DNA from: an uncultured Actinomycetes bacterium
GTDB lineage: Bacteria; Actinomycetota; Thermoleophilia; Solirubrobacterales; Solirubrobacteraceae
Assembly (NCBI GenBank): GCA_963840185.1
Contig: CAWIXY010000001.1
Span: 388,808 to 452,807 of the forward strand
Direction of reading: 5' to 3'
DNA length: 64,000 bases
Position numbers and translations under genes: made by a program. How positions within the stretch are numbered: the first letter of the stretch is position 1; every line of letters starts with the position of its first letter. The notes beneath the pieces were generated by a model. The model was not told the DNA's origin and searched no databases. It saw only the letters and a list, made by a program, of their open reading frames with translations. Below are positions 2,721 to 63,900 of this stretch, in pieces.

Positions 2721-3216
2721 CTAGGCGATCAGCTCGGTCCCCACCCAGGCCACGACGGCGACCAGCGCGCAGACGGCCAGCAGGCCCGCGAGCAGCCGGC
2801 CCGGGCGCTCGCCGCCTCCGGTCTGGTCGTCGAGCAGGTCGGCCTGGAGCAGGACCTCGCGCGCGGCGGCCGCGCCCGAGACGGGCACGAGCACGTCGCG
2901 CGGGCCGGCGGCGAGCATGTCGGGCACGTCGAAGCCGCGCGTGCGGCGCAGCATGCTCGGGACGCCCTCCTCGAGCAGGAGGCCCTGGATCAGCTCGGCC
3001 TCGGCCTGGTTGCGCGCCGCCGGCGACCGTCACGAGCGCGCCCTCGCGTGTACTGCGGGCTTGATCTTGCGCGCGCGCTCGCGGGCGGCCGTCACCGGCT
3101 CGCTCGACGCCGCTGCGGTCGGCGTGCACGAGCGGCATCCCGCAGGCCGGGCAGAAGCGCTCGTCCCCGGCGCCGCCCGGTGCGCCGCAGCCCGGGCAGA
3201 CGAGCGCCTCAGGCAT
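2721..3216 (-). pseudogene. Zinc-ribbon plus DUF2007-like small protein, frame broken at least once
   Basis: ATG at 3216 gives MPEALVCPGCGAPGGAGDERFCPACGMPL...GALVTVAG. The sequence then continues in the -1 frame as ARNQAEAELIQGLLLEEGVPSMLRRTRGFDVPDMLAAGPRDVLVP...TELIA (track ORF 2721..2954). The break is near 3010. Confidence 0.55.
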
Positions 3217-3620
3217 CGACGACCTCGACCGCCGACCTCGGTGACGACGCCGTCGTCGATGCGGAAGCAGCGGACCTCGGGCTCGTCGCCGGCGGCCAGC
3301 CCGACGATCAGCCACTCCACGCCGGGCCAGCCGGCCGCGAAGTTGACGTCGGTCTGCGACGGGTAGGGCTCCGAGCGCGTGTGCGAGTGGTAGATCGCGC
3401 CGAGCTCGTCGCCGCGCGTCCTCGATCGTCGGTCAGCTCGCGGTGCAGCGCCATGCCGTCGACCTCGAAGCGGAAGCGGGCTCGCGGCGGTGTTCTCGGC
3501 CTCGTGCACGCTGACCGCCCGCGCCGTCGCGCACGGCGACGAGCGCCGCAGCACTCGTTCGGCGCGTCGCGCCGGGCGTGCTCGACGATCTGATCGCGCA
3601 GCGTGCGCGGCGATGATCAC
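3209..3620 (-). pseudogene. mec: JAMM/MPN+ metalloprotease (Mec-like, CysO-processing), about 7 frame breaks
   Basis: The JAMM motif GAIYHSHTRSEPYPSQTD is present. The full-length product can only be read by stepping through all three frames: VIIAAH / [20 protein letters not shown] / LVAVRDG / [15 protein letters not shown] / [17 protein letters not shown] / .. / GDELGAIYHSHT...IDDGVVTEV / AVEVVDA*. Each step is one base. Confidence 0.75.
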
Positions 3621-3632
3621 CGGGCAGCTGCC

Positions 3633-3820
3633 CTACTCGGACTTGAGCGCGGGGCGATCGTCGTCGTCGTCGCGGTGCCGGTCGCCCCGAGAGCGAGTCC
3701 TTGAACTCGCGCATGCCGTTGCCGATCGAGCGGCCGACCTCGGGCAGCTTCTTCGGGCCCGAGCACGATGAGCGCGATGACCAGGACGATGATGAGCTCC
3801 ATGGGGCCGATGTTGGGCAT
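3633..3820 (-). pseudogene. tatA: Sec-independent translocase TatA/E, 2 frame breaks
   Basis: The three segments [45 protein letters not shown] and [16 protein letters not shown] lie in three successive frames. Together they give a canonical TatA: a TM helix, an amphipathic helix and an acidic tail. Confidence 0.8.
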
Positions 3821-59984: not shown

Positions 59985-59996
59985 GTTCGGGGGGAC

Positions 59997-60935
59997 GTGA
60001 GCAGCGTCCCCTCTGACGGCGCGTCGCTGCCCCGCGTCGCGCTCCGCGCGCTGAAGCTGTACCACGCGCAGGAGCTGACCGACCGGGCGGCGGCGCTCGT
60101 CTACTACGCGCTGATGTCGCTGTTCCCCGCGCTGCTGGCCAGCGTGTCGCTGCTCGGCCTGTTCGGGCAACAGGGGCTCGTCACCGAGGCGTCGGACTAC
60201 GTGCTCGAGCGGGGGGCCGACGACGCGACCGCCGACGCGCTGCAGGGCGCGCTCGAGCAGGTCGTCAAGGCGGACTCCAGCACCCTCGGCCTCACGCTGC
60301 TGCTCTCGGTCGCTCTGGCGCTCAACGGCGCGTCGGGGGCGTTCGCGGCCGCGGGGCGCGCGCTCAACGTGATCAACGCGGTCGACGACTCGCGCGGCTT
60401 CGTCCGGCGCAAGCTCGTGGACCTGGGCATCACGATCACCGTGCTGGTGCTCTTCCTCGTCGTCATCGTCGCGGTCTTCGTCGGCGGCGGGATCGTCGAG
60501 GACATCGCGGGCGCCATCGGTCTGGGCGACACCGGCGCACTGGTCTGGCGGATCGTCCGCTGGCCCTTGGCGCTGGCGGCGGCGATGCTCGCTTACGGGC
60601 TGATCTACGCCTACGCGCCCGCCGGCCGACCGGGCGCCAAGCGCTTTCGCTGGATCTCGCCCGGCGCCGCGTTCGGCGTCGTCCTGTGGCTGCTGGCCTC
60701 GGCCGGCTTCGCGCTCTACATCCAGAACTTCGGCAACTACGGTGCGGCCTACGGCACTGCCGGCGCGCTCATCGTGCTGCTGCTGTGGCTGTTCCTGTCG
60801 GCCAACGCGTTCCTGCTCGGCGCGCAATTCGACGCCGAGCTCGACCGCCAGACGGCCGCCGGCCGGGCGGCCCCGCCCTTCCCAACGCCCCCACCCTCGC
60901 CCGAGATGCCCGCGCCGCCGGCCCGCGCGCGCTGA
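59997..60935 (+). CDS. YihY/BrkB family membrane protein
   Basis: Intact 312 aa. It reads LTDRAAALVYYALMSLFPALL...ANAFLLGAQFDAEL. Confidence 0.88.
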   Translation: MSSVPSDGASLPRVALRALKLYHAQELTDRAAALVYYALMSLFPALLASVSLLGLFGQQGLVTEASDYVLERGADDATADALQGALEQVVKADSSTLGLTLLLSVALALNGASGAFAAAGRALNVINAVDDSRGFVRRKLVDLGITITVLVLFLVVIVAVFVGGGIVEDIAGAIGLGDTGALVWRIVRWPLALAAAMLAYGLIYAYAPAGRPGAKRFRWISPGAAFGVVLWLLASAGFALYIQNFGNYGAAYGTAGALIVLLLWLFLSANAFLLGAQFDAELDRQTAAGRAAPPFPTPPPSPEMPAPPARAR

Positions 60936-60995
60936 GGGTCATTCCGCAAGCGAGCGTCGGCGAGCGGGCCGCCCGATGCGGCGGCGGCGCGACAT

Positions 60996-63900
60996 CTAGG
61001 CCGGGTCGGCCGGCGCCGCCTCGACGACCTCGGGCGGAGGCCGGTCGGTCATCTCCGGCGGCCACGAGCAGAGTCCGTCGCGGCCGGGGCATGTCGCGCA
61101 CAGCGCGGCGTGCGGCGCGGCGGTGACCGGGTACTCGCCGGCCAGCAGCCCGGAGGCGCGCTCGGCGAGCTCGGCCTGCAGCGCGGCCGCGTCCGCGGCG
61201 ACGTAGCGGGCGCTGACCGCACCGGCGTCGCCGGCCTCGAGGAAGAGGTGCACGACCTCGACCGCGGGCGCGCCCGCGCGCAGGGCCGCAAGGGCGTAGA
61301 TGCGCCGCTGGACGCCGTAGGCGCGCTCGACCAGCTCCTCGAGATCCGCATCGCCGACGCGGTCGGTCTTGTGGTCCACCACGAGCATCGCGCCGGACGG
61401 CTCGCGGGCCAGCACGTCGACGACCCCGTTGAGCAGCGGGCCGGCCGGGTCGCCGGCGAGCAGCGGGAAGGCGAAGGCGTGCTCGCGCCGCACCCAGGCC
61501 GCGCGGCCGAGCCGCCTGCGGACCTCGCTCGCCGCGAAGGCCTCGACCAGCGTGCAGAGGTCGTCGACCTCCGGGCCGTCGAGCTCGATCCCGTGCGCCG
61601 CGGCCACCTCGACGACCTCGTCACGGCCCGGCGGCGCAGCCCCGGGCGCCAGGTCGACGTGCTCGAGCAGCTCGTGTGCGAGCGTCCCGCGCAGCCGCGC
61701 CTCGAGGCCGGGCGCATCGGCGACCAGCCCCGGCGGCGGCTCCTGCTCGGGCAGACCGAGGACCCGCTCGAGGTAGAAGCGGTAGGAGCACGCCGCGTGC
61801 TGGGAGAGGGATGAGTAGGAGAGCGCGCGGACGGGCCGCGGGCCGGCGGCGGGCGCGGCGCGGAGCGGGCGGCTCGGCCGGCGCGCCGCTCTCCCCCATC
61901 GCGGGCTCCCCGGCGGGCGGCTGCTCCATCGCGTCGCCGAGCGCGAGCGTGAGCTGCTCGCCCGCCGCGGGCGCCTCGCCAGGCGGTGTGGGCGCCTCGT
62001 TCGGCGCTGCGGGCGCCGCATCGGGCCGGGCGGGCGTCTCGCCGCCCGCGGCGACCTGCTCGGGCGGCGCGTGGTGCACGACCCGGACCGACTCCTGGGC
62101 GCTGACGCGAGGGCCGAGGTAGGCCAGCGGGCAGCCGCCCGGGCGCTCGGCCGGCCAGCCCTTCGCGGGATCGGTCGCGCCGCTGAGGATCAGGCGCTCG
62201 GACGCGCGCGTCATCGCCACGTGCAGGACGCGGCGCTCCTCCTCGGCCTCGGCGGCGCGCAGCTCGTCGCGCAGCCCGTCGTAGGCCAGCGCCGTCTCCT
62301 TCGTGCCGTCCAGCCCGACGAGCCGCACGCCCAGACGGCCGTCGCGCGACGAGCAGGTCGCCCGCGCGCTCCGCCCCCTGCCGCCCGAGCTCGGCCACGA
62401 CGACGACGCCGAACTCGAGGCCCTTCGCCGCGTGGATGGTCATGAGGCGCACGGCGTCCTGGTCGCCGAGGTCGACCGGCGCGTCGGCCTCGGTCGCCGC
62501 CGCGTCGAGCTCGGCCCGCGCGTGGTCGATGAAGCCGCGCAGGTCGCGGCCGTGCCCGGCCTCGAACGCGTCGGCCAGCCGCATGAGCTTGTGGACGTTG
62601 GCCAGCCGGCGGCGGCCGCTGGCGAGGCCGAGCACGTGGAGGTCGTAGCCGCTGCGCAGCACCGCGCGCTCGAGCAGCTCGCTGATCCCGCGGCGGGGGG
62701 CCTCGCGACGCTCGGCCGCGAACCACGGGCAGAACGCGGCGAGCCGCTCGCGGTCGGCGGGCGGGAGGCGAGCGGCCAGCGCCGACGCGGCGCGCCCCGC
62801 CCGACGCTGCGCCCCCGCCGCAGAACGCCGCCTCGGCCGCGGCCCACAGACCGCCCTCGCGCGTGCGCGCCATCGCCATCAGCGCCAGGCCGTCGGACGA
62901 CAGGCCGACCAGCGGCGAGGCGAGCAGGCCGAGCAGGGCGGCCTCGTCGCGTGGATTCGCGAGCGCGCCGAGGTGGGCGCTGAGGTCGAGCACCTCGCGC
63001 CGCCCCCACCACCCGCGGCTCGCGCTCGGCAGCGTCGCGAAGCCGGCGTCCTCGAGCGCCCGCTCGAAGACGGGCAGGTTCGCCACCGCGCGCAGCAGCA
63101 CGACGACGTCGCGGGCCTCGCACGCGCCCGCGTCGACGAGCTCCCGCACGCGCCCGGCCACGAGCCGCGCCTCGGCGGCCAGCGAGCTGCGCGCCGCGCC
63201 GAGGCCCTCGCGCGCGGCGACCGCGGTCGCGGCGTCGGGTTGCGCGTCCCAGGCCGGCGCGTCGGTGAGCAGCAGCTCCACGAGGGGCTCGTGCGCGGGC
63301 GGATCGTCGCGCCCGGCCACGAGGGGCACGTAGTCCGGACCGTGAGCCTCGCCGAAGGCGGCGTTGAGCGTGTGCAGGATCTCGGCGCGCGAGCGGAAGT
63401 TCGTGGCCAGCGCCGCCGCGGTGCCGGCCGCCTCGTGGGCCTTGCGGCGGCGCTGGAAGCCGCGCACGTCCGCGTGGCGGAAGCCGTAGATCGACTGCAG
63501 CTCGTCGCCGACCACGAACAGGGCGTCGCGGTCGAGACGGTCGATCAGGTCCAGCTGCAGCGGGTTCGTGTCCTGGAACTCGTCGACCATCACGCGCCGG
63601 AACTGCTCGGCGTAGCCCGCCGCCACCGCCGGCGCCGCGTCGAACAGGTCGCGCGCGCGCAGCTCGAGGTCGCTGAAGTCGACGGCCGAGCGCTCGCGCT
63701 TGGCCTCGGCGTAGGCCGCGGCGTAGAGGCCGAGGAGCTCGTCGAGCAGCGCCACGACCGGCAGCGCGCGGGCGTCGGCGCAGGCCCGCGCGAACCCGTC
63801 GCGCGCGCGGCGGTAGCGCTCGCAGGCCGCCGTCGCCAGCTCGTCGACCTGGCCCGGACGGAAGGCGAGCTCGCCCAGCGCCGCGGCGCCGGGCGGCTCG

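Follow-up and report, generated by a model that had tools for sequence, protein, structure and literature searches.

The subject of this analysis is a set of reading-frame breaks in a 64,000-nucleotide stretch of DNA from an uncultured actinomycete (assembly GCA_963840185.1, contig CAWIXY010000001.1, positions 388,808 to 452,807 of the forward strand), referred to below as the window and numbered from its first letter. We find that these breaks are very probably consensus errors of a strain-mixed metagenome assembly and not mutations, and that strain mixture at the consensus step is at least partly their cause, rather than insertion-prone reads alone. A preceding reading of the letters, made with no database search and called here the sequence-only reading, had reported about 50 breaks in 23 genes, had described nearly all of them as single-base insertions and had taken them for a technical artefact rather than for pseudogenes. 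Dozens of breaks are indeed present, although these counts were somewhat high; we arrive at about 35-45 breaks, spread over about 19-20 genes. The artefact view was upheld: repair restores the genes, and related assemblies lack the breaks that are private to the window while carrying breaks of their own.

The window comes from a soil bacterium of high G+C content in the order Solirubrobacterales. The G+C content is 70-77% across the entire window (74% overall), and the encoded GltB is nearest to that of Solirubrobacteraceae/Solirubrobacterales metagenome-assembled genomes (MAGs), with 69-78% amino-acid identity. No conspecific was found in a species-representative genome collection, where relatives reached at most 78% identity, or in a scan of JGI metagenomes, where the best GltD match was 80% and no conspecific short-read contig lay over gltD. 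Rfam and tRNA scans of the whole 64 kb yielded no tRNA, tmRNA or Rfam family at the gathering threshold. Exact-protein look-ups retrieved sister contigs from four ENA metagenome assemblies, labelled A (ERZ25039541:contig_69076, 873,649 bp), B (ERZ25039547:contig_28973, 567,990 bp), C (ERZ25039494:contig_14365, 97,418 bp) and D (ERZ25039576:contig_4565, 455,334 bp). The same look-ups gave two 'FX_farmland' scaffolds of 1,108 and 1,596 bp from another project (ERZ1794893) and a JGI contig of 1,474 bp with 92% identity; a second JGI contig (1,048 bp) was listed without its DNA. Identity to the window is 99.3-99.7% for A and, varying by stretch, 96-99.4% for B, C and D, and the window exactly matches none of the four, nor any short scaffold retrieved. 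Several closely related strains of this organism, about 0.3-1% apart, thus exist and have been assembled independently from several samples, each assembly with its own private small insertions or deletions (indels).

Frame changes were sought with a codon-usage Viterbi parse and with a frameshift-aware parse, and both revealed many of them inside same-strand coding stretches. It should be noted that the frameshift-aware parse, when run on the window alone, mixes gene boundaries with true breaks and was filtered manually against the sister annotations, and that a dynamic-programming version that was free to pick window or A alleles was too permissive at 2.7-8.5 kb and was excluded from the counts. 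True breaks were told from gene boundaries by a tblastn search of the window, with the proteins predicted on A as queries. Most genes were recovered in one frame with 98-100% identity, while 12 genes were spread over 2-4 consecutive frames, and every junction was net +1 (modulo 3), except for two places with two insertions close together. Base-level comparison at 9-64 kb then placed 22 inserted and two deleted bases, with events in 12 genes. This excess of insertions (one-sided binomial p ~2e-5, by our own calculation) and the net +1 junctions bear out the claim that nearly all breaks are +1 insertions. The sequence-only reading had also placed several of its sites outside homopolymers; most inserted bases do lie outside them. 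The inserted bases track the genome composition, being mostly C or G.

Repair was tested by removal of all 22 inserted bases and restoration of one T at 26249. After these 23 edits each of the 12 genes gave a single full-length high-scoring segment pair, 97.8-100% identical to the sister-assembly protein. The repaired genes include those for an S8 peptidase (insertions at 23982 and 24049), a 304-amino-acid protein (26083), a 609-amino-acid Big_13 protein (27780, 27863, 28279 and 28460), a 335-amino-acid protein (33845), a TetR regulator (35886 and 35977), an 826-amino-acid acylase (38426 and 38573), a 516-amino-acid protein (41779), a cupin (43894), GltD (44328, 44670, 44973 and 45399), a HAD hydrolase (57348) and an AddA-like helicase-nuclease (61859, 62348 and 62794). 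For GltD, JGI metagenomes also supplied four unrelated orthologues for the test (75-80% identity). Against the uncorrected window these aligned in four pieces, in frames -3/-1/-2/-3; once the four bases were removed, the same orthologues aligned end to end in one alignment. The sequence-only reading had named just such a restoration of full-length alignment as a check, and it came out as anticipated with the sister proteins of all 12 genes and with the GltD orthologues.

The comparison with the sisters bears on whether any of these lesions belong to the organism. The window and A-D were compared by pairwise projection onto window coordinates, and an event was considered private when at least two sisters covered the site and all disagreed with the window. 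At sites with 2-3 covering sisters, the window-private events comprised 12 insertions and two deletions (14 and one, respectively, in an earlier three-way alignment). The sisters are insertion-biased as well, with private insertions and deletions of 104 and 31 in B, 37 and 11 in C, and 76 and 38 in D; the count for A is confounded. Every gene that is broken in the window is intact in at least one sister, as seen for GltD, the acylase, TetR, the HAD hydrolase, the AddA-like protein and the Big_13 protein. Conversely, the M19 dipeptidase has 390 amino acids in the window and in B but is cut to 247 in A by a private insertion, and GltB, whole in the window and in A, is in fragments in B, C and D. 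From another project, a short scaffold of a different strain (L178, 98.6% identical) has no extra C at 26083 and does have the T that is missing from the window at 26249; it is the sole short scaffold across a break, and its name and size suggest that it comes from short reads. The window-private indels are thus absent from all sisters that cover them, edits of one base restore the open reading frames, and the same type of error occurs elsewhere in the sisters, all of which would be expected of an artefact.

The substitutions point in the same direction, and so do the insertions in spacers (e.g. 40436). Between the window and A, 124 of 178 substitutions are synonymous (70%) and 127 of 178 fall at codon position 3 (71%), while random changes would be synonymous in 26% of cases. 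The affected genes are under purifying selection, and the window and A are genuinely different strains. Such strong selection is incompatible with gene decay, and likewise with four frameshifts within the 1.5 kb of gltD beside a perfect, adjoining gltB. Neither relaxed selection in the affected genes nor a common set of lesions in close relatives, as pseudogenes would show, was observed; most lesions are private, and several of the shared ones are doublets of two alleles.

These data should be weighed against the proposal that the insertions, wholly or in part, are true frameshifts, i.e. pseudogenes segregating in one strain lineage of the soil population. Some insertions are indeed shared: those at 57348 and 62348 are common to the window and C, which also share 14 single-nucleotide polymorphism (SNP) alleles in 56-64 kb, and 24049, 25247 and 35977 are common to the window and D. 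Nonetheless, events that are private to the window are not inherited ones, and 12 of 14 of them are insertions; the set of broken genes differs in every assembly; and the insertion at 62348 is demonstrably a C allele followed by a G allele. Moreover, window-private indels and substitutions stand at about 15:55, a ratio far above natural ones in coding DNA. Together with the selection on substitutions and the intact gltB beside a gltD broken four times, this makes real frameshifts a very improbable account.

Still more improbable, to the point of being negligible, is that programmed +1 ribosomal frameshifting or another form of recoding allows the genes to be read through. Only the uniform +1 direction of the breaks would agree with it. 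The sites have no common motif, insertions are found in non-coding spacers as well (e.g. 40436), and in orthologues and sister assemblies a single frame encodes each of these proteins; these single-frame versions and the repair test effectively refute it.

Why the breaks are +1, why most lie outside homopolymers and why some recur can be seen in part from local alignments. At three sites the window carries in tandem two alleles (41778/9, 45398/9 and 62347/8), and at two further sites adjacent two-base variants of different haplotypes have been merged (23980-2 and 44326-8). At these five sites, a demonstrated subset of the breaks, the consensus has kept both alleles of a strain variant, as the aligned sequences show. 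When both alleles are kept in tandem, exactly one base is added and the frame moves by +1; allele doubling thus leads to a +1 bias, to non-homopolymer contexts and to identical insertions recurring across assemblies. In this GC-rich genome the versions differ most commonly by C/G transversions at third codon positions (64 of 178 substitutions in an earlier comparison of the window with A), in keeping with how often the insertions read as CG or GC. In A-D, the inserted base equals the allele that another assembly carries as a SNP at the adjacent position in 39 of 214 private one-nucleotide insertions, as compared to 3-9 matches in five offset controls. The insertions of the window, in addition, lie in SNP-dense neighbourhoods, with a 3.5-4-fold enrichment (p < 0.001).

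The proposed course of events would be as follows. The same variants would segregate in several samples, as the sister assemblies lead us to infer, so that the same doubling could recur in independent assemblies. At some strain-variable positions, both alleles were written consecutively into the consensus, C or G becoming CG and AG or GC becoming AGC, and the one added base produces a +1 frameshift. The remaining insertions could be doublets with unsampled alleles, or read errors that survived low local coverage; the latter is suggested because these insertions cluster where the versions differ most. We also propose, tentatively and giving it not quite an even chance, that doubling is a systematic and reproducible error class of such strain-mixed assemblies, which adds +1 at the same synonymous SNPs across samples.

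One may ask whether strain mixture is needed as a cause at all. Insertion-prone reads or an insertion-prone polisher, with errors surviving at low coverage, would give an excess of insertions such as the window and assemblies B, C and D show, inserted bases that follow the genome composition, and clusters where several assemblies are noisy together (e.g. 2.8-8.5 kb and 43.9-45.4 kb), and would also explain why most window-private insertions stand in contexts that are identical in all sisters. Random errors, however, should not recur with identical position and base in independent assemblies, as about ten do; the tandem-allele sites are directly visible; and inserted bases match neighbouring SNP alleles about eight times as often as in the offset controls. 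Such purely technological noise probably accounts for a share of the events and not for all of them, and as a complete explanation we consider it rather unlikely. A shared motif at the recurrent sites, such as a methylation site, was not seen by eye.

Allele doubling as a cause, and the artefact reading as a whole, have some drawbacks that need to be considered. Direct evidence of doubling covers five of about 30 sites in the window and about 18% of the insertions in the sisters, and most window-private insertions, in their identical contexts, show no second allele among the four sisters. Of 15 insertions, ten fall at a synonymous third position and 13 adjoin a third position, where one would expect 1/2 and 2/3; these expectations are rough and unsimulated, and the result is not significant alone and only suggestive. 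The stronger proposal that every insertion is an allele doublet was rejected on these grounds, as most private sites have no second allele and the codon-position result is weak. Roughly one third of the window insertions recur in one or two sisters (in D those at 24049, 25247 and 35977, in C that at 57348, among others), and the sequence-only reading had named the same breaks in close relatives as something that would refute an artefact. Most breaks are absent from the relatives, and at the five sites with tandem or merged strain alleles, where each of the two alleles is seen alone elsewhere, recurrence is expected from the artefact itself. Where a shared site has no observed second allele, a real strain-specific frameshift may be present. 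All of this evidence comes from the comparison of assemblies and not from reads, so coverage and per-site support are outside its view.

The sharing of alleles should also be read in the light of the mosaic nature of the window. At 46.8-56 kb it has 54 SNP alleles in common with A against B and C, while the 14 alleles at 56-64 kb that it shares with C stand against A and B. This mosaic (46834-64000) could reflect recombination between strains or else a consensus that is a chimera of mixed strains.

The contig names and sizes, our sole indication of the platform, suggest a probable long-read platform with Flye-style assembly, and the accession series and contig names suggest that the sisters were made in the same way. 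A large Danish soil project with assemblies in ENA used Flye (--meta --nano-hq) and one round of Medaka (PMC12313526); that A-D are Flye and Medaka Nanopore assemblies of this project, Microflora Danica, was a lead that we left unconfirmed, and a literature search for the four ERZ accessions located no paper that names them. Indel and frameshift errors are documented for the consensus of Nanopore or PacBio long reads, for instance by the IDEEL test for truncated proteins (Sereika et al. 2022, PMC9262707), and the correction tool Kastor is aimed at long-read indel errors (PMC12007338). Such frameshifts are usually blamed on homopolymer length (PMC9262707; PMC12007338). As in these reports, the genes of the window are fragmented by single-base indels and become full-length after one-base correction, the breaks vanish in better-covered or independent versions, and error density varies along the contig. 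Unlike the published homopolymer-centred errors, most events in the window are non-homopolymer insertions, and a measurable share of them are strain alleles in tandem. The present case thus belongs to the known class of long-read assembly indel artefacts and is partly tied to strain polymorphism.

A second comparison is with collapsed assemblies. When mixed haplotypes are polished as one sequence, consensus errors arise at heterozygous or strain-variable sites. The errors in the window likewise coincide with polymorphic positions and SNP-dense regions, where two alleles were forced into one consensus; the doublet outcome itself (CG from C/G, AGC from AG/GC) is known here from assembly comparison alone, and we retrieved no paper that describes exactly this signature. 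A third is with Mycobacterium leprae, in which reductive genome evolution produced genuine mass pseudogenisation. The window resembles it in having many recognisable genes interrupted by frameshifts within one region. In contrast to M. leprae, the breaks are private to each assembly, purifying selection is strong, the G+C content of 74% comes with an intact codon bias, and a housekeeping gene such as gltD has several breaks beside perfect neighbours. Bacterial gene decay is, in addition, generally deletion-biased, as the sequence-only reading had premised, whereas the indels of the window are insertion-biased.

The organism itself almost certainly has intact gltD, acylase, AddA-like, TetR and other affected genes. 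The breaks should therefore be regarded as a data-quality problem and not as unusual biology, and their biological significance is low. They do matter for annotation: gene calls from this contig and its sisters are fragmented (about a third of the genes in the window), and protein databases built on such assemblies inherit truncated, frame-shifted products. The same break in several assemblies is also no proof that it is real, as at strain-variable sites the artefact recurs. If doubling is indeed systematic, many protein predictions in public MAG and metagenome collections would be affected, and the errors would be detectable and repairable without reads, by comparison of conspecific assemblies.

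A dense accumulation of errors is found at 2721-8510, with JAB, TatA, PALP (CysM-like), ThiS-like and Rhodanese/ThiF genes on the minus strand and a histidine kinase and a response regulator on the plus strand. Here the PALP domain (Pfam) is split four ways (profile positions 3-54, 54-99, 85-202 and 232-295), the TatA domain (Pfam) is split over two pieces, the Rhodanese and ThiF domains occupy neighbouring frames without an intervening stop, half of the JAB domain is absent from its frame, and so is the first third of the receiver domain. The junctions of the Pfam-split domains comprise six of +1 type and two ambiguous ones (+2 or -1). Homology supports only about 12 of the breaks in this zone, the others having been recognised solely from codon usage. 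Between the window and A there is one indel per 50-100 bp here, with A having about twice the extra bases of the window, and as both versions are poor, the exact number of events is not recoverable. The extra T that had been proposed at 4088 did not hold up: the stretch has the same length in A, and the TAG results from two substitutions relative to A. The minus-strand genes at 3033-6310 (Rhodanese/ThiF, ThiS-like, CysM-like PALP, TatA and JAB) form a cluster, all genes of which are riddled with assembly errors. In gene content, it resembles the actinobacterial sulfur-carrier cluster for cysteine synthesis (CysO/CysM/Mec/MoeZ-type); it differs from it in that the rhodanese domain lies upstream of ThiF instead of downstream.

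For the rest of the window, the individual sites are as follows. At 11788 (plus strand), the window has an extra C relative to A in a putative 337-amino-acid open reading frame that has no Pfam match and is uncertain as a real gene. This frame, called on A, corresponds to 11320-12200 (plus strand), overlaps an opposite-strand ribokinase gene by about 170 nt and contains differences of +1, -1 and -1 between the window and A, and it is perhaps not a genuine gene. The S8 peptidase (minus strand) has two insertions in its N-terminus: the haplotype merge at 23980-23982 reads AG in A, GC in D and AGC in the window, and the C inserted at 24049 is also present in D and not in A. The extra C at 25247 (plus strand) lies in a C run (five versus four), outside the genes called on A, and is likewise found in D and not in A. 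In the 304-amino-acid gene (plus strand), the C at 26083 is absent from A, D and scaffold FX_farmland_Scaff1226361 and fits a GGA/GGC third-position doublet, and the end of the gene has lost one T (26249-26250, TT versus TTT), a deletion that is window-private. Between this gene and a 151-amino-acid gene, D contains about 1.4 kb of extra sequence (L176 10455-11858, at window 26262-26274) that is not found in the window or A.

The four insertions in the secreted Big_13 protein (minus strand) are a C at 27780 and a C at 27863, both window-private, an A at 28279 that is not in A or B, and a T at 28460, around which the versions differ in local sequence. At about 33844, an extra base had been predicted correctly: at 33845, in the 335-amino-acid gene, the minus strand reads GT followed by both G and C, a window-private doublet of the valine codons GTG and GTC. 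The 335-amino-acid protein (33643-34648, minus strand) shows weak Pfam matches to two domains that are known from the hypermodification of phage DNA, aGPT-Pplase3 (E = 4.7e-7) and ADDT (E = 2.4e-4). The protein is found here in a chromosomal context, adjoining a 700-amino-acid open reading frame without a family match (31482-33581), and NCBIfam gave no match for it or its neighbours. In the TetR gene (minus strand), the G at 35886 is window-private and the G at 35977 is also in D and not in A or B. The acylase, of the penicillin-amidase family (plus strand), has two window-private insertions of C, at 38426, which fits a GCG/GCC doublet, and at 38573, which fits a CTC/CTG doublet. The spacer between it and the 516-amino-acid gene has a window-private extra A at 40436, so that insertions are not restricted to genes. 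Compared to the window and A, B lacks 110 bp at 40653-40762, the signal-peptide/N-terminal part of the 516-amino-acid protein, a difference that could be a true deletion in that strain or an error of assembly. In the same gene (plus strand), the tandem alleles at 41778-41779 read C in A, G in D and CG in the window and B. An extra A that had been assigned to 41787 was thus the wrong base and lay 8 nt away from the real one, within this CG doublet.

In the cupin gene (minus strand), the sequence-only reading had noted an in-frame TAG at 43894. The TAG is present on the plus strand, but it is created by an inserted T, which is window-private and also shifts the frame. A cluster of events upstream of or in the cupin N-terminus (44038-44170) comprises three additional bases (44038, 44051 and 44113) and, at 44170, a window-private deletion, which agrees with the deletion suspected at about 44175. 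In gltD (minus strand), the merge near the C-terminus at 44326-44328 reads GT in A and B, TC in D and GTC in the window. The C at 44670 coincides with a different extra base in B, in a scrambled context, and the G at 44973 is absent from A and D, with a different multi-base change in B. At 45398-45399, the G of A and the C of D stand in tandem, as GC, in the window and B.

The Ku gene (54547) was considered as another broken gene and was rejected: the window and B give a normal 320-amino-acid open reading frame that ends before the topoisomerase gene. In A, two private extra bases produce a 357-amino-acid Ku that overlaps the topoisomerase gene, and C has three extra bases. The topoisomerase, of type IB (Top1B_N_bact and Topoisom_I, 346 amino acids), lies directly downstream of Ku (53288-55340, minus strand). 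About 1 kb of extra sequence in B (L169 11022-12056, at window ~55976-55982), which is not in the window, A or C, separates the DUF6766 and ferritin genes and has a weak match to an IS481-type transposase leucine zipper.

In the HAD hydrolase gene (minus strand), an extra A had been proposed at about 57350. An extra base is indeed near, 2 nt away, and it is a C on the plus strand at 57348, which is also in C and not in A or B. Finally, in the AddA-like gene (minus strand), a GC-rich repeat at 61844-61859 has four extra bases relative to A, and removal of 61859 alone restores the frame. The tandem alleles at 62347-62348 read C in A, G in B and CG in the window and C, and the G inserted at 62794 is window-private.

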